Positions 5,689 to 59,821 of a stretch of DNA of 64,000 bases are shown in pieces. Position 1 is the first letter of the stretch; each line of letters starts with the position of its first letter. Both the position numbers and the translations under genes were made by a program. Source of the stretch: Sphagnum compactum (taxonomy: Eukaryota). The stretch spans positions 13,692,213-13,756,212 of the forward strand of contig OZ234493.1 of assembly GCA_965153455.1 (NCBI GenBank), read 5' to 3'. A model generated the notes under the pieces. That model was not told the DNA's origin. It saw only the letters and a list, made by a program, of their open reading frames with translations, and did not search any database.

Positions 5689-7087
5689 ATGGAGGGAAGG
5701 AAGCTGTCAATGGGGATCATCGGCAGCCACCTGCAAGCCGCAGCTATTGTTGTAGTGGTGATGGTGATGGCGTTGATGACAGACGCAGCTAGCACTAGTA
5801 AAGTATCGCCATTGAAGGTGGGGTTCTACGCGACCTCGTGTCCATCAGCAGAGTCTTTGATACAGAGAGCGACGCAAGCGAAATTTAATGTCGACAAGAC
5901 CATCACCGCTGGTCTCCTTCGTATCTTCTTTCACGACTGCTTTGTTCAGGTACTAAGATTGCAGCAGCAGCTACACTTACTTTGGCATTGCCATTCACGA
6001 GTCTGAGGATTCACAATTAAGTACGCATAATTTGATGAACTGCAACTGCTGCATAGACTCGAGGTTCTTGCAGCACCGCGTGCAGCTCTGAATGACTGAT
6101 TAATCTTCTTGCCCGGATGCTATGATCATGTTTGTTGCAGGGGTGCGATGCATCGAATCTAATCAAGAGCACGGCAACCAACAAGGCGGAGTTGGATGCG
6201 GTACCCAACCTCACACTGCACGGAATGGATCTGATCGATACAGCCAAAGCCGCTGTCGAGGAAGCTTGCCCCGGAGTTGTCTCCTGCGCCGATATCATTG
6301 CCCTCGCCACTCGCGACGCCGTCGTCATTGTAAGTATTTCTAGATTCAATCTTTCCACCTTCTTGAATCCACGATCAGCTACCTTGCAGCAGTACGATGC
6401 CACGAGATGATATCACCGCAAGCTCGCAATTTTTTATCTCATGATCATCAGCTTTATACTGATCATACTCGCGGCCGTTGATCATGACTGTTGCAGGCCG
6501 GGGGAGAGACTTACGCAGTGCCGACAGGGAGAAGAGACAGCCGTGTGTCGCTAGCATCTTCAGTGAATTTACCAGGTCCCGGCTTCAGCGTGGCTTCTGC
6601 GGCTGCTGCATTCCGAGGACGCGGCCTCGACATCACGGACATGGTCACTCTCTTGGGAGCTCACACAGTGGGAGGCGCACACTGCGAATTCTTTTACAAC
6701 CGTCTCTACAATTTCAATGGGACCGATGGTCTCCAAGACCCCAGTATGGCAGAGACCTTGGCAGCATCCTTGAAAGCCGCATGCCCCATGAAATCCGTGA
6801 CTAGCAGGTATCTAGAGGGCAAGACTACAGTGGCGATCGACCAAGGTACCGAGTTCGTCTTCGACAAGAGCTACTATCATCAGCTACAACACAACCATGG
6901 CGTCTTGCAAATCGACCAGGAGCTCACTCACGATCCCACCACTTCACCCATTGTGAAGTCTCTCGCTAAGGGCTCAGCTACCCACTTCAGCAGCAGCTTC
7001 GGAAATGCAATCGTGAAAATGGGTAACATCGGGGTGCTCACCGGCTCACAAGGCGAAATCCGCAGAATCTGTTCCAAAATCAACTAG
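5689..7087 (+). CDS. PRX: Class III secretory plant peroxidase; exons 5689-5949, 6141-6329, 6497-7087 (346 aa)
   Basis: Hydrophobic signal peptide, then [14 protein letters not shown], distal-His motif [40 protein letters not shown], proximal-His [14 protein letters not shown] and [23 protein letters not shown]. Two phase-0 GT-AG introns join in frame. Confidence 0.96.
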
Positions 7088-8020
7088 AAACAACACAAAA
7101 CCCAACACCAAGTTCTTGGTGGTGATCAACTCTTGAAGAACCACCACCCTTCATCACTTCACCATAGACAAATTTGGGATTTTTTTGTAGAACAAGAATC
7201 CACAACCATTCTTTTGTACAGTCCACTAGACACACAACATCATTCTTTGGCAAAATCATGCCCCCCAAAAACATCTCTTGCACAAATTCTGAAGTCATAA
7301 CAATTCTGAGCATGAGATTCAGCTGCTGTCCATAGCTGCAGAATTGTGCACTAGAAAAGTAGCTTAATCTTTGGGGATCTTCGAATCCCCTGAACATGTG
7401 TATGAAAGTATTGGATCATCAAATCCCTTGTACATTTTACATTTCTAAGAAAACCCATTCCTTTACACATGCAAAGGGTCTGAATATAGATCCTTTCAAA
7501 TTTTCAGCTCCTCCACTCAAATTATCATTGGCCTCGTGACAAGAGCCTCAAATCTGGACGAGTCTATACTCAAACCCTCCTTGGTACAAAATGGTTATAA
7601 AGGAGGGAACATCACACTTTATTCATTTGATTATATTGACCCAATTTGATATCCTCCCACCATTCATCTATCCATCCATGGCAGTGCAAATTTTACTTTT
7701 GTTTAGGGGTCGAAATTTATGAAAATGTCAAATATTATGTAGTTGTCACTAGTGTTGGGTGGTTATGTAGATAGCGAGTAATAATCAACGATTTCGGTTC
7801 CAAATTTTGAATACCTTACCCTAACCTTGATCTCTATTTAAATACCTAGACAAGGACCTTACCCTAAGACCTGCCCCATCTTAGGATTCAAGTTCAACCT
7901 CGGAACTTGATGACCGTTGATTTCACAATATTTTTAAGACCTTGCACTAGTGGGTATCTTTAAAAATTTCAAGGTTTTGGTTTGTTTTTTCAACCTTAAG
8001 GTTTAGAGTTCTGTTTCCTT

Positions 8021-8908
8021 TTGCCACACATCGCATTCCATCCCTCCTTTCATGGTAAGCTTTTTTTTTGGTGTGATAATGACCCCCTCCTTCTTACTTT
8101 TTTCTTTCCTTTCTCCTCTTTGTTTATTCATTACAATGATTGGGGAATCATTCTTGTGACAGCAGTAGGAACACTGCTGGCTTTGGTTACAGGCATGTTA
8201 CCGCAGTGGCGTTTTGAAAAATGGGCATGTCGAAGGAAGACTGAAAAGGTGGTGATTCTCACTGGTGGGAATGGCACAAGGCATGTAATGGTCATTATTG
8301 GTGCTGGCAAAGGACTGGATCTTGAGGATCTGGGAGTTGGAGAAAGCCCAAGGATGAGGCAACGAACTGAGCACGGCAACCGGCTTGCAAGAAGGGAACA
8401 TGACAAGGATGGGAATGTTATGAAGGACTTAGAAGGCAAAGAAAAAAAGAAGATCTTGATGCTTTGTGGTGTGCCTGTCTCATTCTGGATAACCCAGGTT
8501 TCATGCTTGATACTAGCATTTCTGTGGATTGTGTTTCTCATCACAGTTGCAGGGCTGAAGCAGAACACATGGTACCTACTTGCAATTGGAGGACTTGGCA
8601 TGATCCAGAATGTAGTGGTTGCAGGGGCGAGTCGGGGACCAAGCACAATGGGCATTCACTTGAAGCCAATCAAGATAATTGAGCGACTCAAGGTCATGGA
8701 TGCATCGATGGATCTTGAATCATACCGGAGAGATTGTGGGAGGTCTTTGCTTCCTGAATTCTTCAATGGGAAGTTAAGACCTGCAGAAGAAAAATGGTGG
8801 GATGGTGACACAGAACAGTATGAGAGAGTCAGGCGTGAGCAAAGACCTACCAGCTTGCCAGAAGAGAATCTGCCTGTGTTACCTGCGGGAAATGACCAAC
8901 AAGTATGA
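8021..8908 (+). CDS. Fungal-type uncharacterised multi-pass membrane protein, probably N-terminally truncated (recognisable from ~8128; first in-frame ATG 8195)
   Basis: Intronless open frame with DWGIILVTAVGTLLALVTGMLPQWRFEKWACRR, LTGGNGTRHVMVIIGAGKGLDLEDLG, WIVFLITVAGLKQNTWYLLAIGGLGMIQNVVVAGA, KVMDASMDLE and GRSLLPEFFNGKLRPAEEKWW. I recognise these from a widespread fungal hypothetical protein family. The first ~36 codons look like non-coding pyrimidine-rich DNA. Confidence 0.75.
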   Translation: MPHIAFHPSFHGKLFFWCDNDPLLLTFFFPFSSLFIHYNDWGIILVTAVGTLLALVTGMLPQWRFEKWACRRKTEKVVILTGGNGTRHVMVIIGAGKGLDLEDLGVGESPRMRQRTEHGNRLARREHDKDGNVMKDLEGKEKKKILMLCGVPVSFWITQVSCLILAFLWIVFLITVAGLKQNTWYLLAIGGLGMIQNVVVAGASRGPSTMGIHLKPIKIIERLKVMDASMDLESYRRDCGRSLLPEFFNGKLRPAEEKWWDGDTEQYERVRREQRPTSLPEENLPVLPAGNDQQV

Positions 8909-9984: not shown

Positions 9985-11198
9985 ATGATGATCTGCAACG
10001 TTCTGCAGATAGTAGAGAGTTGGGAGACCAAGAAGTTCACTTTGTGACGTGCATTTGAATGGAACATCACCATGTGTGACAGGCTTTAAAACAAATGTTT
10101 GGTGACCTTACATGTCTTTGTGGGGCCCTCTGCAAATCACATTGATGTTTCTGAATTGTGCTCCAACATGCTTTCAATCATCCATAGGAGATGTTTTTTT
10201 TTCAATTTTGTAGTTTTGAAACTTTGGCAAATTCTTCCAGATTTTTGGCAAATTTTTTCAAGTTTACACTACAAAATAAAGTACAAAATTTTCCAATTCT
10301 TTTTGTAGCCACAGTGTGAAAATTCACCAAAAAAAACTATTATTTAGGAAAATGTACAAAAAGTGGCAATCATCATTAGGGGAATTTAGCCAAATGTGGC
10401 AATAAACAAAATGTAAAGCTCAAATCTTTAATCATCCTTCTATATTTCTGGCTACTTACTGGAAACCAAATCTAGAAATCTGGCAAGTTTTTACTGTTTT
10501 TTTCATTTCTGGCTACTGAAACCCTAAAACACACTTCATTTTCAAGTTTTAATTTCGAACTTTTGGCAACATTTTGCCAGTAAAAAAAGGATGATTCTGA
10601 TGCTATGGTGTACATGCGCTGTGCCATACAAATGGCTAATTGACTTGATTTGCACGTCTAGGCCTGAGTATAAGCGAGTTGAAGGTTTTCAATTTAAGTA
10701 TACACAGCAGGCCACATGTCTTGATGGGAAACTTTGAATCCAGGCCATGGGTTGCATTGCTGGCTGCAAAGGCAACAGGGACTGAACAGTTGAACAACTT
10801 TTGATGGATTGTGCAGCATCCAAAATTTGCTAAGGGTGAGGAGCATTCTGAGAAGGGGAGGGAGAATTTTCAACAACTGCAATGGCAATGCACAACAGTT
10901 TCAGTTTAGTTCAAGAGCTCAATTGAATAGCTAAAGATTATGACTGCTTAAAGAGGGTGAATGCATCCATTTACACAGATCATATGATTCGGCTTTGAGT
11001 TAGACATGCATGTCAGGGTAGTAGCCTTTTTCATATGTAAACGAAATTGTGGGAGGATTAGAGGATTGTTCAACAGGATTTCCACATGCAATGTGATTGC
11101 TTGTGGGGATGTCACGATTTCCTGACAATCTGGGATTTCCTGACAATCTGGGAAAGGGCAGAAGGCATTAGCAATATCACAAGATATCCAGCGGGAAG
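9985..11198 (+). pseudogene. Degenerate exons of an unknown gene, cut by the MULE insertion
   Basis: After acceptor ctag (10661), one frame runs 10663-11198 with 9 stops (6 TGA, 2 TAA, 1 TAG) and an in-frame 18-bp duplication. A short exon-like piece at 9985-10082 has two TGA stops. No homologue recognised. Confidence 0.4.
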
Positions 11199-15980: not shown

Positions 15981-17766
15981 AGGTCAGGTCCAGGAAATAA
16001 CAACAAAGAACAAACCAAAAAAAAAAGTACAATGGTCAGCAACGAAAAGAAATGGACTGTGATGAACTCCATCTGACGCCGAATGAAAAAACGCAGCCCA
16101 TCCAGTGGACAGAACGGCCAACTGGTGCATTGGTGGCTGCTGGTTCACTCTGGCCAGCGGGAAGAGGTGAACCAAACACTCAAAATTTTGTGGGGACTTT
16201 TGTATGTATGTGTGCATTGTTATACTGTTCGACGTTGGCAGGTGTGTTCACGAACTGATTATTAATGTTCGTTTGAGTTGAAGGCATCAGCATTGTCTCT
16301 GAAAGAAAAATGTACATTTGTGTTGATGCTAGCTAGACTGGAGCTAGCAGCTACCCATGTGAGCTCCAGCTAATTTCCCTCAACTACCCTTAACAACCAA
16401 GGGTTTTTGACCCTTAACGACCCATCCATATATGAAGGAAGTTTTGTTTTTTTTGGGGTTATGGTGAGATCTCCCAAACCACAATGCTTTAGGCTGTGTT
16501 CTTGGTATCATTGGAAAGCTTTCATTGAGTATGGGTGCAACATTTTGGAACTTTAGCGCAAAAGTTATTAACTATTCAACCATTTTCTCACTACAAATTG
16601 TATGAGAATTTGAGGTGTTCTTGGTATTCCTGGAACTCCTTGAACGAATCAGATTTAATGGAATTTATTTCATAATTTTCAGGTTTAAGGTGTGGAAGAA
16701 ATTGAGTTTTTAGTGGATTTTGTTATATTGGAAATTCAAAAAATTACAAAAACTTGATTTGGAAGAAAAAATCAGTTGAGTGTGTTCACACTTGTGCCAA
16801 CGGCCCAGGCTACCCTAGTACATATAATAGGTATCAGTGAAGGTGCTAGCTAGTTCAGCCAATGCATAATTGTGTATTCTCATACAGGGTTCTCCAAGTT
16901 GCCAATGCAATATCTCACCAGGTCGTCCGTTTTACAAAATGCCCACCCCATTATTATCTTTTATAATGTACCCTCTACATACACTGTGAAATCTGGAGCA
17001 CTGCTTTATGGGGTATTCAACGTCTCGCTATACCAAGATGCTCATCATCACGGATTTTAGCTCGTACAAAACTTATTAGCATTTGTCTACTAGCCCCATC
17101 CAATGTTATTTTTGTCAGATTTGTAGCCAAAGTGGCAGTGATCCATGGGAAATTTTAGCCAAATTTGGCTGCAAGCTGAATATGAAAGAATTTTTTTACA
17201 ACATCCTTCTACATTTTTTTCTACCTACTTGAATCATGTGTAAAAATATGGCTTTTAAAAAGAAAATGTGGTCGAATTTCTGGCTATTGAAGATGGAAAA
17301 AAGCACTTGATTTTAGCACTTTTACTTTTTAGTATAGGTTTCTGGCTATATTTATAGCCAGCGAAAAAAGGTTGGGCCCCCATCACACTGTGCAGGAGCC
17401 GCAGCACTTTTCCTGACACCCCCGTGAAGTTCGATGGGGGTGTATAACGTCTTCCCTGTTCAGGCCAGCCTGTTTGTTGGATATCTTCCTGGTACTTAAA
17501 GCCTGTGGCATCGCACTTTCAAGCTGTATGCGTAGTGCAGCGTTTTTTTCGTGAAACCCTGGAAGCCTTTTTTTGGTTGCAGAAACGATGATGACTGGAT
17601 TGGTGGAATGGCTCAGCTTGCTTTGAGTACGTGTGGAAACAAATGTGGAACATGAAGGTTTAGATTTCCTGTCTGTTTCAATTTGATTAGCGGCCTGTGT
17701 GAACGGCAGAAACACTCACTCGTTTTTGCAAGCGTTGGACGGGGTCGAGGGGGACAAAAATTCCTG

Positions 17767-18139
17767 GTAAGTTCTAACTTTTCAGACAAAAAATGTCTGA
17801 AAATCGAGCTGTATCATTCATGCAGACTTTTACTTATGATTTTGTTGCAACACAATGTAGCTGGCGATGGGTGTGTATGTCTAGAGCTCTTGTATATTTT
17901 GAATCCCTCCTTGCACTTTAGTGGGCCTCAACTTCACTGAAATTTGGTTTTGTGTCATCAAGAAATGGAATGGAATCTAATAGCGTACCACCTGTTGTTG
18001 GAAATGAAATATCTGAGACATTCCTATTCTAACATTACCACATTTGCACCTTCAAAGAGATTTCCGATCAGTATGGATTTTTGTAGATTTTATAAGGGTT
18101 AGGATTTATAGCCTTTTGATTTGTTTGTGGGTGTTACAG
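17767..18139 (+). other. Putative 5'UTR intron of the HET-domain gene
   Basis: Strong donor ctg|GTAAGT at 17767 and acceptor gtgttaCAG| at 18139, about 160 nt before the ATG. Confidence 0.5.
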
Positions 18140-18301
18140 GTCCAACCAAGGAATGGGACAGAACTCAGAATCAGACAGTACAAGAATAAGGTTGCTGTAA
18201 AATAAGAGAGTGAAATCACCAAAAGGAAACAAAACTCATATCCAACAACCACAACTTGTATTTATTCTGACATCTATCTAGTATACTTGTTATTTTCCAA
18301 C

Positions 18302-20434
18302 ATGGTATCTCCACACGAGCCACCTTTGCCATCTTTGGACAATACCTTCATCTTCAAAGATGCTCCATGGTTGGGTGGAAAGCACGATGGATATCCTTTG
18401 TTATCATTCAAAGACTACATAAGAGCACGTCCCAAGATCTCTACTCTTTCAAGTCGTGAGCGTGCAGCAGAGTTGCAATGTGTGTTGACATTTGGCCTGT
18501 TGGAAGCAGTGATGGAAGTTAAAATCCTTGAAAGCACGCTACTACAACAAGGTGCTGACAACAACTGTAGTATTGGTGGTGACAGGAACAAGGTGTTCAT
18601 GACAAGCAAAAATTTCCCAGCACTGTTGAAGGATTGGCGGAACCGTGTCCTACAACTTGGAAATGGGGAGCCATGTCAGCAGTGGGCAAAACGCATTCAT
18701 ACTACACTCAAGCAGGCACATGGAATGCTCACGATGGATGTGTCATGTAGATTGTTTCAGGATGCAGGGTTGCAGTCGCATGAACTGGTAGATATCCTCT
18801 TCCAAATAGGGTCTATTGCTGAAGCTCTCGTGTCCTCAAGAGCAATTTTTCCACAAAACTTTGTACATCATGGGTTTGGTTCATGGTTGGTTATACTAAA
18901 CACTTGGCCATACATACAACTCAAAACAGACATGGTTGCGAATGGATGGTGTCCATTCACAATTGAGATTTTGTCAGAAAGTGTAAGCATGCTGGGATAC
19001 GCACGCACTTGCAAACATCCCCATATCAGAGAATTACCTGAGGCACATAGGAAATGCACCACACAATCATGTGTGATAAATACGATCGATACTACCAATT
19101 ATGTGCCAAAACATGTCATAGGAACTTGCAATTGCGACAGGTATAAGCCGTCATTAGAGAATATCATTAGTTCCCTGTCAGTTGGTAAGATACCAGTGAT
19201 CCAATGCCCTCTGCCCCATGAGGCGCTACTTTCCAGTGACTCTGTAAGGATGCCTTATGTAGCGATATCCCATGTGTGGGCTGATGGATTAGGGAGCACA
19301 ACTGAGGAAGGACTGCCAGCATGCCAAATCAGGCGGCTTGTGACATTGACCAGGCAGCTGACACAGGATGGGGCATTTTGGATTGATGCACTTTGCATCC
19401 CTGCTGTCAAAGATATGAGGAAACGGGCAATAGGGTTAATGGCCACGACCTACAATGAGGCAGAAGTTGTGCTGGTGATTGATTCCGGCATCCGAGCAAC
19501 TTCAGTTTCCTTACCACGTGAGGAGAAATTGTTACACTTGTTGTCTTCAGGATGGATGCAACGGCTCTGGACTCTCCAAGAAGGGATTTTGGCTCAGAAG
19601 CTTGTTTTCGAGTTTTCAGATGGGTTGGTAGCCTTGGAAGAGCTTTTGCCAATGGGAGAAGAGATGTTTAACCCTGTGCTTGTTGACCTTGCAGCGGAAC
19701 TTTTTCGGCTTAAAAAGCACCAAGTTAGGCCTGGTAGCTTTTACATCAATGATGCAGCATGCGCTCTCCGCTGGCGGACTACAAGCAGAGAAAGCGATGA
19801 GACGCTTGCAATCTCTGGGCTGTTGAACCTTGATGCCTTTGAACTAGCTAACCTTCCACCAGATCAACGCATGCAAACTTTCCTCCTCCGCATCCAAAAC
19901 TTGCACAGGGATATCATCTTCCTATCTGGTGTGAAATTGAACAAGGAAGGGTTTCGTTGGGCACCTAGAACACTAATGCGACATTTACCCACTAGCTTGG
20001 ATTTTGGTGAGTACAAAGCGCTCTGCACATCCACCGGCCTCATGGCAGAATACTATGCTATATATTTCCTTGAGACGGTCATTGATGGCGAACATGAATG
20101 GTGCATTCATGACTTATCTAAACAACGATTTTATAAAGTCATAGATCAATGGTTGGGGCCTGATGCTATGGAAGCTGGATATGCCACTTCTTATTCCTGC
20201 AGTGTTATATTGTTAAAGGAATTGCCAGAGGTGTCAAATATCACATCTTGTGCAGTGGTTCTAGTTCAGGGCCTGGTTCCAAGAGAAGGCTCTGAAGATG
20301 AAGGAGATAGAATGTTGTGTGAGTTCAAGAAACGATTGCTTCTACAAGACATCACCGAAACCCAGTTGAATAGCAGTAGGGCTTTGACAAGAGTGATTGC
20401 AAAGTCTGGGAGGATGAGAGTGAAGATTGTTTGA
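18302..20434 (+). CDS. Fungal-type HET (heterokaryon incompatibility, PF06985-like) domain protein, 710 aa, intronless CDS
   Basis: Uninterrupted ORF from ATG 18302. HET motifs PYVAISHVWADGLG, FWIDALCIP, AIGLMATTYNEAEVVLVID, WMQRLWTLQEG and RWRTTSRESDE. N-terminal LQCVLTFGLLE, GWCPF and HxxCTxxxC...YVPKH...CNC motifs are typical of long fungal HET proteins. Confidence 0.93.
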   Translation: MVSPHEPPLPSLDNTFIFKDAPWLGGKHDGYPLLSFKDYIRARPKISTLSSRERAAELQCVLTFGLLEAVMEVKILESTLLQQGADNNCSIGGDRNKVFMTSKNFPALLKDWRNRVLQLGNGEPCQQWAKRIHTTLKQAHGMLTMDVSCRLFQDAGLQSHELVDILFQIGSIAEALVSSRAIFPQNFVHHGFGSWLVILNTWPYIQLKTDMVANGWCPFTIEILSESVSMLGYARTCKHPHIRELPEAHRKCTTQSCVINTIDTTNYVPKHVIGTCNCDRYKPSLENIISSLSVGKIPVIQCPLPHEALLSSDSVRMPYVAISHVWADGLGSTTEEGLPACQIRRLVTLTRQLTQDGAFWIDALCIPAVKDMRKRAIGLMATTYNEAEVVLVIDSGIRATSVSLPREEKLLHLLSSGWMQRLWTLQEGILAQKLVFEFSDGLVALEELLPMGEEMFNPVLVDLAAELFRLKKHQVRPGSFYINDAACALRWRTTSRESDETLAISGLLNLDAFELANLPPDQRMQTFLLRIQNLHRDIIFLSGVKLNKEGFRWAPRTLMRHLPTSLDFGEYKALCTSTGLMAEYYAIYFLETVIDGEHEWCIHDLSKQRFYKVIDQWLGPDAMEAGYATSYSCSVILLKELPEVSNITSCAVVLVQGLVPREGSEDEGDRMLCEFKKRLLLQDITETQLNSSRALTRVIAKSGRMRVKIV

Positions 20435-20846
20435 AGCATGATCAAAGCAATTTAAGCAATTGTTCAACTTAATATCATATATATATTTATTGTTGTGCAA
20501 CTATGGGTCACCATCTAACTGGCGTGTTCCAAATATACATATATAGATATATGGAAACGATAGGTATGTACTATGACATGACACTTTAGCTATGACTTCT
20601 TGAATTCAATTTTTTTGTGAGAGAAGGAAAGGGGAGTAGATTATCTGTGCCTCTTTGAATAGTTAGTTCTGCTGGTGAGAATTTGTGCATCAGATCACAT
20701 GATTAATGGATCACTTGCGCTGCCAAAGCTACTTTTGGTAATCAGGCCTCTTTTTTAATATGACGCAGCTTTCTCATAAGATTGTTTCGGGTTTTTCTCA
20801 GTGCAATTCACAATCCCCATATGCGGATTGATCTCACACAACTGTG

Positions 20847-21156
20847 AATAGATTCAAGGATTTCATCACAGTATGTCTCATTGCTTTCACAGCCATGTAC
20901 CTTCTTATTGTAGAAAAAAATAGGTCATAGTTTATAGTTGCAAATATTGCATGTTCAGGTCACTAGCAACATGATGAGCATGCATGTTACAGAGCTTCAT
21001 TGCACTTCATGAACAGATTCTAGGATTTCAGCATCAGTATGTCTCATCAGCTTCTTACAGCCATGTACCTTCTTGTTGCTGAAAAAATTTGGCCATAGTT
21101 TCCTATTGCAAATATTGCATGTTCAGGTCACAGCAACATGGTGAGCATGTATGTTA
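20847..21156. repeat. Imperfect tandem duplication, ~165 bp x2, downstream of the HET gene
   Basis: agattc.aggatttca...cagtatgtctcat...acagccatgtaccttctt...ttgcaaatattgcatgttcaggtcac..gcaacatg.tgagcatg.atgtta occurs twice. Confidence 0.9.
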
Positions 21157-21459
21157 TGGATATTCATTGCATTTTGTGCATATGCTAGTTGCCAGATTTC
21201 CTATTTTATTTATTATTCCATGATTGATTATGCTGGTCATATGCCTTGTATGAATTGCAGAGAGGAAGAAATCAATCAGGAGGAAGCAAGGATGAAGCCT
21301 GCCTATGCTTGACAATCGAGTTGCTGTCAACAGCATAGGCCGTCCACACTCAATGAAACTTTGAAAAGTGTTTCAAGGTGTGCATTTTTCTTTCCTCCCT
21401 CCCCCTGTTCAAATTTTGCATTAAACCTTTTTGGTAACCAAGAGTAGACCTTTGATTTT

Positions 21460-23060
21460 AGATGGCAGAGTTTCTGCAGGCATCAACACTCCCATGATCT
21501 TCTCCATTAAGATCTGCTTGGATGGAACAGAACTCATAGGCATCAAAAGAGATGTATGATGCTAGACGGAGTGCACCACAAAATGGAAAGCAATATGCAG
21601 CTCTGCTTCAAAGCTCATGATGCACCTTCAACTCCCTCAAGGCGCACCAACTTCCTCACTTGCAATTGCAAAAGTGAAGACATCAAAGATGAGTGGACAT
21701 GTTTTTATTCACTATTGCTTCTCTTTAAGGACTGTGTAACTCATCAATTTTGAGTACAAAGAAGCCAATAACAATCTCGTGAAGACCCCTAGCAAAGAGC
21801 TAACATTTCCCACCTTGACATCAAGCAACTCATGACCTGTTTTTTTATCTTGGCAGATCTTCCAAGACCAGGCCCTGTCATGAGAGGGACCTAGTAGCTT
21901 TAGCAGATGAATCCTAATTGGTCATCTACTATATTGCAGCCAAACCATGTAAGTTACTGCCAAATCATACTAAATGCTACTTTGACCTACACTGTGCCAC
22001 TACTTAATAAAGTGACAAAATTGGAGGTCAGATAACAGTTCTTTTGTTTGCTTGCTCGTTCTTTTGTTTCTTTTGATACTCTTTCATTTGTAGCAATATA
22101 GAGGCTGGGCATGTGATGTGGTAATATTCTTCTTGCACTAGGGGGAATGCTAGTTGGTTCAAAAAAACCAGAAATTTCTTATTCACTCTTCTTGTTGAGA
22201 TCAGGACCTGCAGGACCACTTTAGACAAACATCAAAGTTGTAAGCCTCTAACAAAATTGTGACCCACAAAGGTTAGAATCATGCAGGTGGTTGAATTGTT
22301 GATTTTCAAGGGGCAAATGTCTCTACAGTGAATAGGTGAAATTTTGAGTCCTGATTCTGTCTCTCTGCTGCTGCTGCTGCTGGGCTAAAATGCCAATTGC
22401 TGAGTTTTTAGAAGAGTTGCATGTATTTAAAGGTTTGTATATGAAGCTGTGAACTGTGGAACAAACCATTTGTGTCAAGATAAGTTCCACTACTGCATTG
22501 AGCCTGCATGAAAGTAATTGGCCTCTATTCTGCCACCTTCCCGATTTCACAACATCCCTCTTGTCTCCTCCACCCTTTGCCTGTTCAACCCACTTACTCT
22601 CCAACTTTTTTTTCACTGCTTAAACTGGGTTTATATACTCACAAGGTTTTTGCAACAATAAACTTATTAGAATTTGAAATGTGAAACACACTACTCTTGC
22701 AGAACAACACCCTGTATGCATGTGTCTTTCCAATACCTCCTTTCTGAGGCTTCTCAGGGTTATAGTGCATAATCATCTTATCCTTGTTAGTATGCATTAA
22801 ACTTGGACATTCTGGATTTACAATTCTGCAGATTGAACTACTGAAATCCCTTGGACCAGTTTCTTTCATTTCCAATACGAGGTATGCCTCTTACAAGTGC
22901 CTGACCCAACAGTGACTGTATGGGAAAAAAGTTGCAGAAGCACATGATTTGCTCCACAATTCCTTGAGGCTTTTTATGTAATTCAATTGGCCTTTTTGGT
23001 ATTCCATAGGTGTCTTCTTCTTTGTGGAGCTGCTGGACCTTCTTGCACTTCATTTGCATC
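21460..23060 (-). pseudogene. Possible degenerate multi-exon gene or TE ORF of unknown family
   Basis: Protein-like minus-strand frames with scattered stops, e.g. after ctgcag| at ~22207 PDLNKKSE*EISGFFEPTSIPPSARRILPHHMPSLYIATNERV..., and MKETGPRDFSSSICRIVNPECP... ending at donor-like GTGAGT. A CT-rich leader-like tract lies at 23190-23230. No family recognised. Confidence 0.3.
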
Positions 23061-29687: not shown

Positions 29688-32338
29688 ATGGAACAGGTTT
29701 GATTTCCTCACACTGTCCATCTGTTTTTTTGTCTCTCTTCTACTTGGTTTTTGTGCAGTGTGTTTTGTATGTGGCAATCGATCAGGGTACTTGTTTTACC
29801 CCCATCTTTGAAATGTGTTGTGCAATCGGGATTCACTGTCTTGTTCCCCTTGTCATATCATTCTTAATCTCAAATCGTATACAGGTGAAGAAGTTCATTA
29901 GCAAATTGATGATACCACGCATGATGCTTAAGAAGAGCATGAGGAACCTCTCGTCTTCTTTGTCAATTTTGCAACCCTAGTCTGACTCAAGTATGCTAGA
30001 TCTGAAGGAATCTATATGTATGTCTTGCTTTTGGTCTTTCTGGGAGGAAAGCACCTGCCAATTGAATCTGACCAAAAGAGTTCAGAGAGGAGAGTATTAG
30101 GTTCCAACAGCAGCCATGCCCTCTTTTGGATCCTGCTTTGCTTTCACTAAGTTGTTAAGTGTGGATGTGTTTGTCAATGTATCAGGAAGGAACAAAGGTT
30201 GAACTCTACATCTATGACCTAAGCCAAGGGTTGGCACGCCAGCTTTCAGTTCAATTTTTGGGAAAGGCATTAGATGGAATTTGGTAAGTCCTTGTAGAGA
30301 GCAGCACTTATGCTCATAGTGTGCCACTTTTCTATATGTTAACATTTTTGTAAGCCGTTATAGTGGATCATATTGTGTAGATTTTATCTTCAATGATTCA
30401 TCAGGCATTGCAGGAGAAACTGGAAACTCAGTTGGTTTGTGATGTCTGTGTCACATGCATGGTGTACAATGACTTCTTATTCTTCTTGTGCTTTGTTTCT
30501 GATCAGGCACACTGCTGTAGGAGTTTATGGAAAGGAGTACTATTTTGGGGGAGGCCTTCAGAATAACCCAATTGGACAGAGTTCATATGGCAATCCAGTG
30601 CAAGTAATGCTTCTCGGTCATACTCAGATCCCACAAGATGTTTTCGAGGAATATCTTCAGGAGATACAGCCTCAATACACTCAGGAGACCTACAGTCTTA
30701 TGCACCACAACTGCAACAACTTTTCAGAGGAGGTTTCACAGTTCCTTTTAGGGACTGGCATACCAGAGTACATTCTTCGACTGCCTGAGGAAGTCTTGAG
30801 CAGTCCTATGGGAGTTATGCTGAGTGAGTGCCTCTCTTTGCATTTCCTGTATTACAAATTTCTTGCAGATTTATCACTCTAAATTCATCATGAGTTGCAG
30901 TTTCTACCTGTCATTCATTCATGTGCAGCAAAGACATAATAGGAGGACACTTGTGCTCAGTTGTGAATTTGCTAAGATAAATGGCTGTCCAAATTATGTG
31001 TTTGTTTTTCTACCTCCTTTCTTTATGAGGGCATTTCTTCCAATGAGCATTTTTCTCACTCCCAGCTCTTTGGTTGACATCCACTGGGAATGGATGCTAT
31101 CACATATTCTGAATGTGCTGAGATTTCTCAATTCTCTGTATGTGCTGAACACTGTGCAATCTGCCTTTCCCAACTTGTTCAGAAGTACCTGGAATATGGT
31201 AGTCAACAACCAGGAGGAGGTTCATTGGGTGAACTTCTCTAATTTTCAGGTTAAGCAGAAGGGATTCAGCAATAGGACAGTGTCAACCAGTCTGCCCATA
31301 TTGATAATGTTTTTTTTCTGCTTTGCAGTGCCAATGATTGAAAATCTGGATGCCACATTGCGACAGGGACAAGTCCCAATGCCTCAGCAAATCACATCAC
31401 CTCAACCCATGCCTAACTTCTCCAACATTGAGTTGCCATCCTCAGTCAACTTGCCATCTGTTACGTCCAAAGAAGCCAGTGCAGTGCAACTCACGTCTGC
31501 TGGCTCAATTCACTCAGTGAATGCTTCTGAAAAACCCCATGTTGTTCCTCCAGTATCAATCTCATCAGCTCCAACAACCCTCAGTAAGTTTTTAACTTCT
31601 CTCTCAACCTTCCATCTCAATCCTCATTTCTGTGTGCTCTTTGGGTATCTAGGACTGCAATGAGTCAACAATTCCCTCTTCTGCAGCATGGACGAATGGT
31701 GAAAGAAACATGTTGAAAGGAATCACTGTGGTACAAGGTAACCTTCCAGTCAAAGTTGAAACTGTTCTGATAACTTTTATGTAGGCTAGAACCTTGTCTG
31801 GATTTCTTCCTGAGGGGGCATGTCATCAAGTCAACAGCTGCACACACAGAGAAGCTGTCTTGATATGCAAAGAAAATTCCATAATACCAACTGATTTACA
31901 ACATTCTTCTATAATAATGATGCCATGTTGCACGCTTGATTTTCCCAGCATGAGAGGAGTTTTTCCTGAAGTTTTTTTAATGTGAGAAAGAAGGCATGTC
32001 TTAGGTGAAGTGGCTAAAAGTTTCTACTGTTAAGCAATGTCAGTTTCTTCTCATGTGACAAATGAGTTAATGCTCCAAATCAGTGTTTTCCAGCTTTGGC
32101 AGTCAGCAATTCAAACCCAGAGGAAAAGCAGCAAACAGGTGCAACTAGCCCAAGCTTGCAACAGTCAGCAAAGGACTCTTTGGGAAATGCCCGTGCTCAA
32201 GTTCAAGAAGAGATAACCCGTGAATTTGCTCAGATAATGGCTTCAGGGAGTTTGAAAGCCAGTGAAGCAGCAGCTCTTGCTGCTCGGCGTGTGTTACAGA
32301 GACATGGAATGGCTGCAAGCACAGTCCCTTCTTTCTAA
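29688..32338 (+). CDS. DESI1: PPPDE-domain desumoylating isopeptidase (DeSI1-like); exons 29688-29696, 30186-30283, 30507-30823, 31329-31583, (31687-31737), 32094-32338
   Basis: Spliced product [52 protein letters not shown]...[21 protein letters not shown]...[17 protein letters not shown]...[43 protein letters not shown]. Catalytic His (WHT) and Cys (NCN) are present and all GT-AG phases fit. The first micro-exon is less certain; an alternative in-frame ATG lies at 30177. Confidence 0.93.
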
Positions 32339-55937: not shown

Positions 55938-58900
55938 CTAGTTTGAACCCCGTGCCTAATGCACAGGTGTGTTATTTCAACAATGTTTGGTTCATGTTTT
56001 AGTTTTTTTTTAAAACTTTTATCTTTTTTATTTTTTATTTTTATGGGTTTTCTGTTTTTCTTATTATTTTGTATAATAAAAATAAAGTGTTTCTTTTTCA
56101 CTTTTGTATTTTGTTTATTTGGATGCAAGTTTGAAGTTTGGAGAAAGAAGACACACCTCATTCTTTTTCAAGTAGGGTTTTTCTTCATTATTATAAGTTT
56201 TATTTTTTCTTATTTTCTACTCTTTATTTGGTTTCTTCTTTTTTGTAATTTTTTTTCTTTTAAACTGATTTTACTGTATTTCCCTTTCCTTGTTTCATTT
56301 GTTTCCATTCCTTTTTTATAGTTTTTGTGTTTTTACTTTTTTTTGTTTATGTTTGTTTCATGTTTTAATGTTTTCTATTCTTATTTTTGGCGCCCCGATC
56401 TTAGATGTAGGTTGACTAACCGTCACTGGTGGCAGCTGCGAAGCCAGCGTTCAACCGGCGCACTCGCAGGCAATCAGCTACTCCCCAACGCCTCGCTGGA
56501 GCGCGACGGAAAGGCACTGATTGATTTGCTAGATGGTCTGTCCTCGGGGTCGGTTGTGTTTATCAGCGTGACGGATGGCGATCTTACGGATCATGATGCG
56601 CGTCTCGGGGGTGGAGCCGCCGAACGTCTCCCAGGCCATGGCGATCAAACGCAGGCCATTGCGGCAACACTTTTCGTCGTCAGAGTGCTTCTTGGCGGTG
56701 GCGGCCTTGGCAGCGACCAGACTCTTTCCCGCCGCACGATCGATGAAGGTGGGCTGCAGTCGGTGTGTAATCACAGAGTCCAGGCAGGCGTCCTGGCCGA
56801 CGCAGAACATCGGGAGCAGGACGTCAGCGGGAGGATCCTTGCGGTCGGTAATTAGGCCGGTCTTCTCGAGGCGGGACTTGAGACTCGCCTCATTGGCGAT
56901 GATGTTCTGCACGTACGGCATGCGGTCGTGGCGACAAATGGTGTGCGACCCGTGCCTGCAAGTCACAGCGTGGTCGTCGTACGGGTCCATCACGTGCAGA
57001 CGGCACTTTGGGCAGTGGACAGCTGGGCATGTCTTCAAGCCCAGCCGGAACTGGACGACACGCTGGAAGTGGCGCGGTGGCAGGGTGAGGCCGAGATAGG
57101 GCAGCGGCAGGGCGGTGAGGTACCCCGACGCCTAGCCAACGTGCAAAGACTGGAGGCGCCCCTTGTTGCACACGTTGCGGTCGTACTTGGCGACGAGGTT
57201 GCCCGGGTTGACGCAGGCGCTCAAACTCGGCGCTCAGGTTGTCGATCAGGTCCGCGTCGGCATCGTTGTGGCCGAGCAGTTTGTTGACTAGGCCGGCGGT
57301 GCCCAGGCACGAGCTGACGTAGGCGGCATCGGGGTGGTCCTCGACAATGCCAATGGCCAACCCGGCCTTGCCGATCAACAGGTGGGCCTGCTTCCATGCG
57401 AGCAGGTCGTCGATTTGGGCGGAGAATATGGCCTCGATTGCCATCTGCCAATTCTGGTCGGCGGTCTTCAGCTCGTTGCAAATACAGTCGCGACGCACGG
57501 TGCGGAGCAGGTGGTTGATCTTGGACGAATTGGCGCTGCCGCGCAAGATGATCATCTCAGTCTGCGGTCGAGGATCGACTGGATGTTGTCGATCTTGGCC
57601 TTGATGAAGTCCTGCAGGTACAGGTCGCGGCCGATCGGGCAGCCGAGCGTCTTCTGGCCGTCCTCGAATGTCTTGAACTTAATCGACGCCGGGAACAGGC
57701 ACCGCAGGTCGATTGCGTCGGCGTCGCTGGTGATCGATGACTTGTGCAGCTGCAGGTGGAGGCCGTGCTCAAGTCCGTCGTCGACGAACAGCTGGACGGC
57801 TCGACTCGTGTCATTGAGCGTGCCGACGATCTTGCCATCATCGAGGTACCACGCGTTCAGCTGTAGGTCGGGGATGATGTTGCGCACCTTGAGGAGGAAG
57901 GCGTGTGCAGGGTCAGCGAGAACAAGAGGCCGACCAGCGGGTCGCCCTGGTCGACGCCGGATGTTAGCGAGAACACGTGATCCTTGTAATACAGGGGGCC
58001 CGCCTGTGTGTAGACGGTGGCGACGAACCACGCCATGCTCGGCAGCTTGTCGACGACCAAATCAATGGCGGTTTGGCGTAGGCAGCGCCCGTAGGCGTTC
58101 TGCAGGTCCAGGTCGACCTCGGCATGCGTTTCGTGGTCGATGGTGTCACGCAACATGTTGGTAGGGAGCACGATCGCCTCGGCCCCGTCGGCGACACCGG
58201 CGCGAAGCTGGAATGGGTTCAGCAACTCGGCGATTGCGACGCACTCCTTGTCCAGTAGGCACTTGCCGACGATGCGTCGGTCCAGCAGCATCAGGTTCAG
58301 CTGGCGGATGTCGTACTCGGTCGGGTCGGCGCGTAGCGCCTCCTGGGACGCTTCCTTGATGAGTAGGATGGCCCGCCCGACGCTAAAGCACGGGCCGATG
58401 GCCTCCGGCCAGGCACCCTACGCCAGCACGTTGACAAAGCGGCTGTACGCCCGCTAACAAGCGTCCGCCGCGTTGGCTGAGGGAGCAACGGCGTAGTACT
58501 TATAAAACTCGGCACGGTTGCCGTCCATGCCCAACGCGGTTCCCTTCAGGATGCTGTTGACGATGTGCATGATCTGGCCCTTCTTGAAGTTGTGGCCGGC
58601 CGGCAGGTCGGCCAGCGGTTGCATCTCGGGCAGGTCGGCTTGTTGTAGCTTGGACAGCAGCTTGCCGAACGTGCGCTCGCTCGACTTCGCCATGCCGCAC
58701 GACATCAAGGCACGCGCGGCGCAGCCTACCCTGCCACATTGCACCAGCTTCTTTGCGCGCTTGGCATTTTGGATGATCAGTTCGTCGCCCTCGAAGCGGT
58801 ACGACGGGGCGGAGATGCAGGCCAGGCGGACTTTGACCATCGCCGACGCCCATTGGGCGCTTGACCACCAAGCTACAACCATTGGACGCAACGGTGGACG

Positions 58901-59821
58901 ATTTGCGTGGCGAACGACGTCGCGAGCTGGGTGCCACCGCGGATGGGCGTGCGCAGGATGGTCTTGGTGAACATGAAGTGCGATAGCCAGCGCTCCAGGT
59001 TGGTCGGCTGGTCGCATAGCTTGTTAAGGATGGTCGTCCAGAGTTGAGTGGCGGCGTTGATCGCGTCCTTGGGTATGTAGTCGGACGTGGGTAGAGTAAC
59101 AGTTAGGATCTATTCTATGCTGGGCAGGTTGAGGTTCTGCGCCAGCCCTTGCGCGCCCTACGAGGAGTTGTTGCCGAGACGACCGGCGTCGACTTGAATG
59201 GGATCGACATCATCTCGGCACTCCTCTAGGAGACGTGTTAGGTTGGTGTTAGATTGCTGCAGGTTCTTGAAGATGCGACGATGATCACGGCAGCGCTCCG
59301 CGTCACCGGTGCATCTTCATCTCTATTCTTATTTTGTCTATCTTCATTTTTTTTCTATTTTCATGCGTTTATTTATTTATTTAGTTTCTATTTTCTTTTC
59401 CAAAAAACTCCTAGTTTTTCTAATATGTTTTATAATAAAAATAATTTTTAAAAAAAATTATTTTTGTTTGATTAGTTGCAGGTTTGAAGTTTGGAAAAAG
59501 AAGACAAACCTCAATTTTTTTTCAAGTATGGTTTTTTTTCTCTTTCTTTTGCTCTCTGTTTTGTTTCTTATTTTTTGTCATCTATTTTTTAATTTTCTTT
59601 TAAGATTATTTTACTGTATTTACCTTTTTTGTTTCATGTTTAAGTGTTTACAAAAAGTTTCTAATTGTTAAAGTGTTTTTCTGTTTTTTTTTTTTTTCTA
59701 GTTTTTTCCCTTTTTAAAATATATATTTGTTCTGTTTGGATGGATGACGGGACCGATGACGGGATGGATGGATGGATGAAAAGCTTCATTTCATCCCGAC
59801 GTCCTTTACTATATGTAATGA
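55938..59821 (-). mobile_element. Non-autonomous Helitron carrying a non-LTR retrotransposon segment
   Basis: Minus-strand 3' end cacacctgtgcattaggcacggggttcaaaCTAG|T differs by 1 base from the end at 48591-48624. Minus-strand 5' end TCATTACATATAGTAAAGG...(catc)n; its 5' flanking base is C rather than the canonical A. Confidence 0.7.
56390..59310 (-). mobile_element. GC-rich, frameshifted non-LTR retrotransposon of CRE-like type (RT + Zn knuckle + restriction-like endonuclease)
   Basis: RT motifs FQLRAGVADGAEAIV, DLQNAY, SGVDQGDPLVGLLF, AWYLDDG, GLHLQLHKS and LGCPIG, then KINHLLRT and WKQAHL...GL. C-terminal CPKC..MDPYDDHAVTC...RHD, PADV...ACLD and AWETFGG (RLE). Spread over several frames. 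Confidence 0.9.

Follow-up and report, generated by a model that had tools for sequence, protein, structure and literature searches.

The window analysed here, the whole 64-kb stretch of DNA, is Sphagnum nuclear DNA, and its most prominent coding feature is an intronless frame on the + strand for a 710-residue protein with a HET (Pfam PF06985) domain (Table 1). This frame, which the preliminary description had reported as intact, is the longest of the window by a wide margin. From stop to stop (18206–20434) it has 742 codons and the runner-up has 302 (the window has 19 frames of at least 150 aa). By simple arithmetic, the chance of an open frame of 742 codons is about 1e-16 per frame start; a chance ORF was considered and rejected. 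An in-frame TAA at 18203–18205 rules out an N-terminal extension, and a transcript contig from X3, spanning 18140–20764, covers the whole coding sequence with 103 differing letters and no gaps. The public annotation has a model at the locus, P0151, of 611 aa that has 100% identity over residues 100–710. Residues 1–99, absent from it, carry the nearly invariant W23, L24, H28, Y39, Q59 and G65, and the public model seems to be without 99 conserved N-terminal residues.

Table 1. Features of the HET locus and of the fragment upstream of it, in window coordinates
Feature	Position	Strand	Basis or remark
302-codon open frame; fungal-type multi-pass membrane protein, C-terminal 260 residues at 8132–8905	8000–8905	+	
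Breakpoint of a ~785-nt deletion relative to L002, L005 and L007	17561–17563	.	window 17561 = L002 1474; window 17563 = L002 2260
5′UTR exon (second exon in relatives)	17583–17766	+	strand-specific coverage; loose read ends before 17581
5′UTR intron, GT..AG, 373 nt	17767–18139	+	spliced reads and contigs from related Sphagnum
Last 5′UTR part, on the coding exon	18140–18301	+	frame and coverage
Coding sequence, 710 codons and stop, intronless; ATG at 18302	18302–20434	+	ORF scan, translation, X3 transcript contig
N-terminal helical domain, residues ~25–240	18374–19021	+	AlphaFold2 model, pLDDT 89.1, pTM 0.89
Cys/His cluster C217, H249, C252, C257, H271, C276, C278; putative structural metal site	18950–19135	+	conservation
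HET core, alpha/beta fold, residues ~295–560	19184–19981	+	Pfam; domain model pLDDT 93.7
WTLQE, residues 423–427, with family-conserved Glu E427	19568–19582	+	translation, family alignment
C-terminal all-beta domain, residues ~573–710	20018–20431	+	model strands 573–709
3′UTR as in relatives' transcripts	20435–20764	+	X24 depth ~0 past 20640; X3 contig end 20764

In a Pfam scan of the 710-aa protein the HET family is recognised at residues 319–400 (E 3.2e-11; 44.2 bits, Pfam's gathering cut-off being 22.5), and no other family, TIR included, appears at E≤1. That all the HET core motifs are kept, among them the Glu of WTLQEG, is correct. The three blocks stand in the translation as YVAISHVW (319–326), FWIDALCI (359–366) and WMQRLWTLQEG (418–428), each with residues at least 90% conserved in 84 aligned family sequences; W423, T424, Q426 and E427 are all kept at that level. 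The Cys/His cluster noticed ahead of the domain is also a real feature. In 92 non-Sphagnum homologues six of its residues (C217, H249, C252, C257, H271 and C278) are kept in 96–100% and C276 in 80%, and H271 and C278 are invariant in the 84 sequences. The cluster is an inherited trait of the whole fungal family and no moss addition. The N-terminus had been suggested to bind metal; the conserved Cys/His pattern favours this, and the metal would probably be zinc.

The resemblance of the HET core to TIR domains, also suggested earlier, is present as a weak likeness of fold. With the VIA-align search, residues ~315–475 weakly match the folds of deoxyribosyltransferases and TIR domains, with Z up to 4.9, and values below 5 lie under the tool's own level for trust. 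The SARM1 TIR aligns over 101 aa at 4.0 Å (Z 4.9); thirteen of the 50 matches listed are TIR by title, all at Z<5. Nucleoside 2-deoxyribosyltransferases, though different in size and context, tie for the best match (6evs, Z 4.9, 100 aa, 3.8 Å) and account for six of the 50 listed. These enzymes and TIR domains have a common flavodoxin-like fold and N-glycosidic chemistry. Such fold matches of the HET core are common also to the Rossmann halves of glycosyltransferases. Against this part of the earlier suggestion, Foldseek with the full and the HET-core model gave nothing in the PDB at E≤0.001, and the Pfam scan has no TIR match. A profile search of PDB sequences returned five chance-level rows (E≥0.19), with no relation to TIR or deoxyribosyltransferase. 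The HET-core model has an alpha/beta core with parallel strands in common with TIR NADases (SARM1, plant TIRs, bacterial ThsB), but differs from them in that its ~265 residues include a long helical extension. For residues 25–240, a wide VIA-align search with the full AlphaFold2 model matched nothing but generic helical bundles at Z≤7.0, which is uninformative.

The transcripts come from other plants than the one sequenced. An intron in the 5′UTR had been predicted from the letters, to be checked by RNA-seq, and its exact junction, 17766/18140, was found in reads from related Sphagnum, not of the window genotype: in six polyA reads of run X24, which have five starts between them, and in an X3 and an X4 contig, whose shorter sides are 26 and 189 nt respectively. 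The junction was mapped as 17765>18139, skipping 373 nt, and has GT..AG borders after the cut is moved by +1. Unspliced contigs are also present (X1 record 1, X3 record 11). The intron-spanning reads are 90–99% alike to the window and are therefore from relatives. Every mapped run is from another genotype; only four of the 139 X24 reads mapped are at least 99% alike to the window. The depth of the 139 over the gene is all in one direction, that of the + strand. The expressed copy in the relatives agrees with the orthologous L002 and L005 types at 31 and 30, respectively, of 39 variant sites. Orthologues in related Sphagnum are thus transcribed from the + strand, and their 5′UTR intron is spliced.

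The 5′UTR exon preceding this intron has an upstream ORF of 12 codons (17588–17626), and the acceptor in front of the exon (ttgcag, ending at 17582) is the same in L002. In the relatives a further exon precedes this one. Letters at the loose ends of X24 reads correspond to L002 1862–1893 and were also found, by fuzzy search, in L005 and L007; in the window these upstream-exon letters have no match with up to three mismatches. The ~785-nt deletion, common to the window and its sister sequence L001, has taken the end of the relatives' first 5′ exon and its GT donor (aatggaag/gtaagc in L002). The deleted segment is also present in the paralogue L008.

The earlier description of the neighbouring relics as full of stops holds approximately, but genuine plant genes also lie close by, one for a class III peroxidase and another for a PPPDE peptidase. 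The flanks of the gene are collinear with other Sphagnum contigs, and the locus with its flanks occurs in several of these at 95–97% identity. The host-like CpG depletion claimed for the ORF is borne out: its observed/expected ratio is 0.43, that of the whole window 0.46 and those of neighbouring host exons 0.13 to 1.08. Integration in the host genome is supported, because of the collinear plant flanks, the host-like CpG depletion and the 5′UTR intron spliced in relatives.

Of 8000 sequences scored, 602 are homologues at E≤0.001. The closest named proteins are from Sphagnum, with those of five species in the same clusters; outside the mosses the nearest homologues come from fungi, at ~50% identity. 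Alignment to the fungal proteins is full-length, at 36–57% identity and with query coverage of 90–100% for most full-length matches. Being collinear from end to end, with conserved residues retained, it places the protein in a subfamily of fungal and moss HET proteins of ~700 aa, known from Aspergillus, Penicillium, Armillaria and others. No published name for this subfamily (N-terminal helical domain, Cys/His cluster, HET domain, C-terminal beta domain) was found and, as far as seen, even its fungal members are uncharacterised. In the tree, four Sphagnum rows, Ceratodon, Physcomitrium and six unnamed rows form a clade of 12 (UFBoot 100, SH-aLRT 98) in which there is no named fungus and in which the branching agrees with moss phylogeny. 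Its sister (100/99) is a clade of Aspergillus and Penicillium (Eurotiales). The acquisition is therefore old, as had been proposed, and the tree supports gain of the HET family by mosses from a fungus before the divergence of Sphagnum and Bryopsida.

The same proposal had the gene under purifying selection, and here the outcome is divided. Mean ω over the five intact Sphagnum copies is 0.62–0.83, not different from 1 (LRT 1.92, p=0.17). Pairwise values are 0.34–0.87 by NG86 and 0.51–1.27 by ML, significantly below 1 in one of ten pairs, and no single domain has ω significantly below 1. Within Sphagnum, variation is greatest in the C-terminal domain, whose ω of 1.30 does not differ significantly from 1. 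Yet all five intact sequences stayed stop-free in none of 2000 neutral simulations. At the family-conserved columns, defined by conservation of at least 90% across 92 non-Sphagnum members, the window keeps 95 of 96 residues and the dead copy L008 71 of 89; live L004 and dead L008 likewise differ there (Fisher p=2e-5). In the window lineage such columns have no new changes where 5.7 would be expected (P=0.003). Purifying selection thus acts in this lineage on the core residues that the family conserves, and the remaining protein changes almost at silent-site speed. Copies are also born and lost. At least one relative has a dead orthologue: L005 is a pseudogene, with a +2 frameshift and with codons 398 and 452 turned into stops (the gene models of S. 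magellanicum are split at the same two places). Among paralogues, L003 and L008 are broken and L011 and L013 are without an ORF of at least 100 aa.

Positive selection in the Sphagnum copies is suggestive only. Model M2a is significantly better than M1a (LRT 27.4 with the five intact sequences, 59.2 with eight), the site model placing 6–7% of codons at ω ~7, and the clade-B branch has ω 2.5. The M2a signal is gone (LRT 0) once the 50 of 710 codons with at least two differences in any pair are masked. Since the mask also strips almost any truly fast codon, the signal is indistinguishable from multi-nucleotide mutation or gene conversion between paralogues; at codon 487, for instance, L002 and L004 share CAT.

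A HET superfamily of fungal origin was reported in Physcomitrella (Yue et al. 2012), and according to papers citing Sun et al. (2020) the HET genes of P. patens lie in ‘fungi-derived genomic regions’, FR1 and FR2. The available text of the literature that pairs ‘Sphagnum’ with ‘heterokaryon incompatibility’ (PMC7911284 included) does not mention Sphagnum copies, though Sun et al. (2020) or its supplements may list them. The P. patens protein P0314 is in the same moss clade as the present one, and the event is of the same type, transfer from fungus to moss. FR1 and FR2, as described in those citing papers, share with the Sphagnum locus the presence of HET genes beside other fungus-specific genes and mobile elements. 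The P. patens form, in the descriptions available, is truncated (P0314 has 544 aa), whereas those of Sphagnum and Ceratodon have the full length (707–721 aa). The gene agrees with the transfer already published and is a well-preserved new member, of no new kind; its main value is therefore as a clean, well-documented case. What the locus adds is a full-length, intact, intron-bearing Sphagnum member with expressed orthologues, and the persistence of the whole ~700-aa fungal architecture, Cys/His cluster included, since the split of Sphagnum and Bryopsida.

[quoted passage not shown] Unlike theirs, the Sphagnum gene is in a plant genome, CpG-depleted and with a plant-type 5′UTR intron. Its protein is no NLR, being without NACHT or WD40, and a role in allorecognition cannot be assumed. 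According to the parts of reviews available, the HET domain is by itself enough to cause cell death in fungi, and it is related to TIR, with a conserved Glu proposed to be equivalent to the TIR catalytic Glu. TIR-like NADase activity is, in the same sources, a hypothesis published for HET domains in general, and a 2025 review gives their enzymatic activity as ‘not determined’.

On balance the locus is a nuclear Sphagnum gene of the fungus-derived moss HET family, with the full-length ~700-aa fungal architecture, whose product would probably be an effector of the cell-death or immune type. By analogy with fungal HET-domain proteins it would act conditionally. From the fold model, a TIR- or deoxyribosyltransferase-like core might use E427 on a nucleotide substrate, for example NAD+, and the fast-changing N- and C-terminal domains may serve recognition or control. 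A fungal contaminant or a very recent transfer, with no resident moss gene, is scarcely credible. Its one attraction is the fungal origin of the closest homologues outside the mosses, at the ~50% identity given above; contamination was rejected on the plant genes around it in the window, the same locus and flanks in several Sphagnum-type contigs, a CpG depletion like that of the surroundings and a spliceosomal 5′UTR intron common to relatives. The shared clusters with named proteins of five Sphagnum species, and a moss clade free of named fungi, argue the same way.

The state of this particular copy deserves more weight. It is unlikely, but to be taken seriously, that the family was once functional in mosses and that this copy has lost its promoter and first exon, drifts neutrally and is yet to acquire a stop. 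The segment with the relatives' first exon is indeed gone in the window and L001; ω between these two is 0.68 by NG86 or 0.95 by ML (p=0.86 against 1); the window's terminal branch, with 6 synonymous and 11 nonsynonymous changes, stayed stop-free by chance in 534 of 2000 neutral simulations; ω is alike on live (0.88) and dead terminal (0.76) branches; the orthologue L005 is already dead and the transcripts are all from other genotypes. Such decay is at odds with the absence of new changes in 95 conserved codons of the window lineage, a path that in part predates the deletion. The window and L001, which both descend from the deletion, moreover remain open. The copy also keeps an intact second exon and acceptor and an intact GT..AG in the intron, and the public annotation has its model P0151 here. 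Another reading grants function to the gene and denies it a TIR-like enzyme, the HET core being a non-catalytic module for interaction or oligomerisation, or the role in moss being a developmental, non-immune one. This is doubtful. The table of the 2025 review, as available, records no activity or structure for a HET domain, the fold matches, which are weak, extend to glycosyltransferase halves too, and KP4, another fungus-derived moss gene, is cited as affecting cell development. Preservation of E427 with the whole WTLQE block in at least 90% of the 84 family members fits an active site instead, and the best-ranked small-domain fold matches, among the 50 listed, are enzymes of N-glycosidic bonds (deoxyribosyltransferases and the SARM1 TIR). 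The mode of evolution is like that of immune gene families: the core is frozen, the surfaces are near-neutral or diversifying, and genes often die.

About 10 kb upstream of the HET gene is the membrane-protein fragment of Table 1, which matches only residues 204–463 of P0165; the N-terminal 203 residues of that protein have no match anywhere in the 64-kb window. The fragment has no Pfam family above cut-off, and among named rows its homologues are Sphagnum proteins and then fungi only. In Armillaria and Dendrothele the HET and membrane-protein families share contigs, in A. ostoyae two locus tags apart. The fragment is a 5′-truncated copy of the gene found alongside HET genes in fungi and other Sphagnum. 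A more ambitious reading, and quite an improbable one, is that the two genes derive from a linked fungal module, reached the moss ancestor together in a single block, were block-duplicated in Sphagnum and now constitute a plant cell-death or immune module, in which a zinc-stabilised HET enzyme would be TIR-like and the N- and C-terminal surfaces would be diversifying. The diversification is posited there because of the fast codons and the clade-B branch mentioned above. If the link with the membrane-protein gene is real, mosses could be a tractable system for the biochemistry of HET domains.

Apart from these genes, an ORF in a GC-rich block fell, in the ESM Atlas, with unnamed eukaryotic clusters (0.92), and zf-RVT was a weak lead (0.86).

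[quoted passage not shown] Its start is placed at 18302 because of an in-frame TAA at 18203-18205. YVAISHVW (319-326), FWIDALCI (359-366) and WMQRLWTLQEG (418-428) are present in the translation, the Glu of WTLQE being E427; the intact frame with HET core motifs of the preliminary description is confirmed exactly. The public model at this locus (P0151, 611 aa, NCBI-sourced) is 100% identical to residues 100-710 and starts at Met100. The 99 residues that it leaves out are conserved across the family and contain the nearly invariant positions W23, L24, H28, Y39, Q59 and G65; because of this conservation, and of an S. balticum orthologue that also has 710 aa (93% identity), the longer reading is the better one. 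CpG depletion as in host DNA had been noted, and the frame does lie inside the host range (the whole window has a CpG o/e of 0.46), but nearby host exons vary so widely, from 0.13 to 1.08, that 'host-like' is not a sharp label.

Features of the window and of the HET protein (nucleotide positions in the window; residue ranges from the AlphaFold2 model)
Feature	Position	Strand	Detail
Class III peroxidase	6126-7084		exons CpG o/e 0.78-1.08
Membrane-protein open frame	8000-8905	+	C-terminal 260 residues
Upstream ORF in 5'UTR exon	17588-17626	+	12 codons (ATGATG...TGA)
5'UTR intron	17767-18139		GT..AG
HET frame, stop to stop	18206-20434	+	742 codons
HET ORF, ATG to stop end	18302-20434	+	710 aa; CpG o/e 0.43
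HET codons left out of P0151	18302-18598		99 residues
Two adjoining copies, ~165 nt each	20845-21007, 21010-21174		directly downstream of 3'UTR
Abundantly transcribed stretch	21448-21519	-	72 nt
PPPDE peptidase exon	30397-30879	+	CpG o/e 0.13
PPPDE exon with following open frame	30397-31660	+	open frame 279 codons; CpG o/e 0.08
GC-rich block	56300-59100		GC 0.60; CpG o/e 1.14 (0.2-0.5 around)
Helical N-terminal domain	residues about 25-240
Cys/His stretch	C217 to C278
HET core, alpha/beta, then helices	residues about 295-560
All-beta C-terminal domain	residues 573-710

Beyond Sphagnum, where the best homologues are 82-95% identical (clusters including S. magellanicum, S. balticum, S. jensenii, S. 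fallax and S. troendelagicum proteins), identity falls to about 50%, and the matches are fungal (Aspergillus, Penicillium, Armillaria, Heterobasidion, Morchella) save one from the moss Ceratodon purpureus (52%). A query with the latter brought in a 544-aa HET protein of Physcomitrium patens. A careful ML analysis of 45 rows places the window protein in a 12-row clade (UFBoot 100, SH-aLRT 98) of four Sphagnum rows, Ceratodon, Physcomitrium and six metagenome or Logan rows of no stated species, with no named fungus inside it and an Aspergillus/Penicillium clade as its sister (100/99). Within the clade Sphagnum stands opposite a metagenome or Logan row joined to Ceratodon, which in turn pairs with Physcomitrium and the other five such rows; the order of the three genera agrees with moss phylogeny. 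The branching suggests a single origin of the moss HET genes, the weak point being the six rows of no stated species. The old acquisition proposed earlier is borne out: it is ancient, and the gene is host-integrated. The result agrees with fungus-to-moss HET genes in print, among them the 'HET superfamily (20)' of fungal origin listed for Physcomitrella (Yue et al. 2012) and the fungi-derived regions described by Sun et al. 2020, in which HET, HopQ1-like and conserved-fungal genes occur; the window gene is a new Sphagnum member of this known class.

The second-longest open frame of the window encodes part of a multi-pass membrane protein in which Pfam finds no family. Sphagnum proteins come first among its homologues, and the named rows after them are all fungal. 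This copy is truncated, as nothing in the window matches the N-terminal 203 residues. Going by record length, the Sphagnum homologues share chromosome records with the HET orthologue or paralogues (lengths 16,499,247, 22,391,646 and 22,001,507). Judged by record length, 10 named fungal homologues from seven species (Armillaria ostoyae, A. gallica, A. novae-zelandiae, A. borealis, A. nabsnona, A. luteobubalina and Dendrothele bispora) likewise share a contig with a HET homologue, some of these contigs being as short as 114,830 and 129,038 bp, and the tags of the A. ostoyae genes differ by two (ARMOST_12085 for HET, ARMOST_12087 for the membrane protein). This suggests that the two genes form a linked pair and were transferred together, in one block; the membrane-protein gene may be the one that Sun et al. 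call 'conserved fungal'.

For transcription, a stranded polyA run of raw reads (X24) and three RNA contig sets (X1, X3, X4) were aligned to window 16800-21800; all are of genotypes other than that of the window. Since only 4 of the 139 X24 reads reach at least 99% likeness (61 are at 95-99% and 74 at 90-95%), they come from a relative. From 17468 to 20640 their first mate is on the minus strand throughout, which in most stranded libraries means plus-strand RNA. The candidate 5'UTR intron is confirmed by an exact joint in these relatives (17765>18139, the cut being moved by one), seen in six X24 reads (5 starts), one X3 contig and one X4 contig (shorter side 189 nt); unspliced contigs are also present (X1 record 1, X3 record 11). 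A gapless X3 contig spans 18140-20764 with 103 other letters, so that the full coding sequence is transcribed and open in the X3 relative. The copy expressed in X24 matches the orthologous type of metagenome loci L002 and L005 at 31/39 and 30/39 variant sites, and the HET orthologues are expressed. The short upstream ORF has a start conserved in L002. At the ~165-nt copies, whose mutual likeness is 81-85% across loci, X1 and X3 contigs have a joint that 'goes back 64'. The 72-nt stretch is covered in all four runs; its transcripts run on at either side into letters that the window lacks, so the stretch probably represents a fragment or a copy of some gene sited elsewhere.

The X24 reads extend upstream of 17581 into letters that are absent from the window and are found in L002, L005 and L007, directly before a gtaagc donor (L002 1862-1893). 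They fall within a segment of ~785 nt (L002 1475-2259), flanked by the positions that correspond to window 17561 and 17563, which is present in these three loci and in the paralogue L008 and is absent from the window and from its sister L001, collinear with the window across the breakpoint. Its presence in a paralogue as well makes the segment ancestral. As it holds the relatives' first exon and donor, the ancestral first exon is gone in the window, which retains the last 20 nt of their first intron including the acceptor ttgcag; the ancestral promoter is probably gone too. The segment also holds a repeat ~72% like window 10384-10601. L001 is without window 17687-18205, and so without the 5'UTR intron, and carries ~1.9 kb of additional sequence at 17451/17485.

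Among the 16 metagenome loci retrieved for DNA comparison, collinear flanks mark L001 (97.1% CDS identity), L002 and L005 (95.8% each) as orthologues, the CDS of L007 being identical to that of L002; L003 (93.0%), L004 and L006 (about 90%) and L008 (87.3%) are paralogues. L001, L002/L007, L004 and L006 are intact. Disruption in close relatives, set beforehand as an observation refuting domestication, does occur: L005 has 2 nt added after CDS base 229 and stops at codons 398 and 452, L003 has stops at codons 601 and 609, and in L008 there are 8 stops and 3 indels that shift the frame. In S. magellanicum, residues 100-397 and 455-710 are represented by the models CY35_19G000900 and 001000, split where L005 has stops and with the WTLQE stretch missing. 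The S. jensenii model ends at residue 608 (1-608 only). L011-L014 match only window 17670-19521, at about 80%, and the two of them examined (L011, L013) have no ORF of at least 100 aa. The family is in birth-and-death turnover.

Whether purifying selection holds the gene depends on the measure. Mean dN/dS, for which a value near 1 had likewise been set beforehand as refuting, gives no signal of it on the Sphagnum time scale: NG86 pairwise values are 0.34-0.87 (35 informative pairs), ML pairwise omega (GY94, F3x4) is 0.51-1.27 and significantly below 1 in one of 10 pairs (the window copy with L005, p=0.003), and codon models for the five intact sequences in IQ-TREE give 0.77-0.83 (GY variants) or 0.62 (MG), with a separate tree likelihood in agreement (lnL -4446.65, omega 0.835) and omega=1 not rejected (LRT 1.92, p=0.17). 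None of five regions differs from 1 (N-terminal 0.73, Cys/His 0.63, HET core 0.64, residues 451-570 0.92, C-terminal 1.30), and live branches (0.88) are close to the dead terminals L005 and L008 (0.76). Against this stand the open frames and the conserved positions. About 4% of neutral substitutions in the CDS would make a stop, and none of 2000 neutral simulations on the DNA tree left the five intact sequences all without a stop; the window copy's own intactness is weak proof, as its terminal branch alone stayed stop-free in 534/2000. The window keeps 95 of the 96 columns that agree at >=90% in 92 non-Sphagnum homologues (the exception, P535H, is common to most Sphagnum copies); dead L008 keeps 71/89. 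At conserved codons the window lineage has 0 changes against 5.7 expected (P=0.003, with neutral branch lengths from the branch model), and live L004 has one against 20.2 (L004 vs L008, Fisher p=2e-5). Roughly a seventh of the residues thus form a frozen core under constraint, the remainder, most of the protein, being near-neutral or diversifying and changing about as fast as silent sites. With family turnover and the loss of the ancestral first exon, this makes 'domesticated under purifying selection' too simple.

Positive selection at fast codons is suggestive only. Site models place 6-7% of codons at omega about 7 (M2a vs M1a LRT 27.4 with five sequences, 59.2 with eight), the candidates (15, 149, 153, 200, 304, 462, 467, 481, 487, 622, 639, 646, 647, 689) being mostly outside the conserved HET blocks. 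The signal is gone once 50 multi-hit codons are masked, and some variable-site patterns resemble gene conversion. The L003 branch has an omega of 2.5 (against 1, LRT 8.96, p=0.003). This branch, of paralogue clade B, carries 5 synonymous and 50 nonsynonymous unique changes and 2 stops; the excess could reflect adaptation following duplication, or be an artefact of the single metagenome contig.

The AlphaFold2 full model (84-sequence alignment) has a pLDDT of 89.1 and a pTM of 0.89. The Cys/His cluster, noted earlier together with a possible metal-binding regulatory N-terminus, is present and, being conserved across the 92 non-Sphagnum homologues (C217, H249, C252, C257, H271 and C278 at 96-100%, C276 at 80%), is a feature of the fungal subfamily; the pattern of residues is that of what is probably a structural metal site. 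The NAD-consuming, TIR-like effector proposed earlier was approached by fold. Foldseek returned nothing at E<=0.001 with the full model or a core model (pLDDT 93.7), an exhaustive VIA-align search with the core gave no Z >=5, and a PDB sequence profile search found no solved relative. Among the 50 VIA-align matches listed, 13 are TIR entries (best SARM1 TIR, 9hq0: Z 4.9, 101 aa, 4.0 A), 6 are nucleoside deoxyribosyltransferases (best 6evs: Z 4.9, 100 aa, 3.8 A) and the others are mostly glycosyltransferase Rossmann halves; the matches span core-model residues about 31-190 (protein 315-475). The TIR matches, weak and below the tool's own proof level, fit a proposal in the literature by which HET is remotely related to TIR and carries an equivalent Glu, and a TIR-like enzyme may reasonably be inferred; a 2025 review gives HET biochemistry and structure as not determined.

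Elsewhere in the window, the CpG o/e of the open frame after the PPPDE exon is extremely low, as in that exon. In the GC-rich block open frames overlap on both strands; Pfam on four frames gave no match, and the ESM Atlas gave eukaryotic clusters without names and a weak zf-RVT lead. The block may be a young, unmethylated retroelement fragment.
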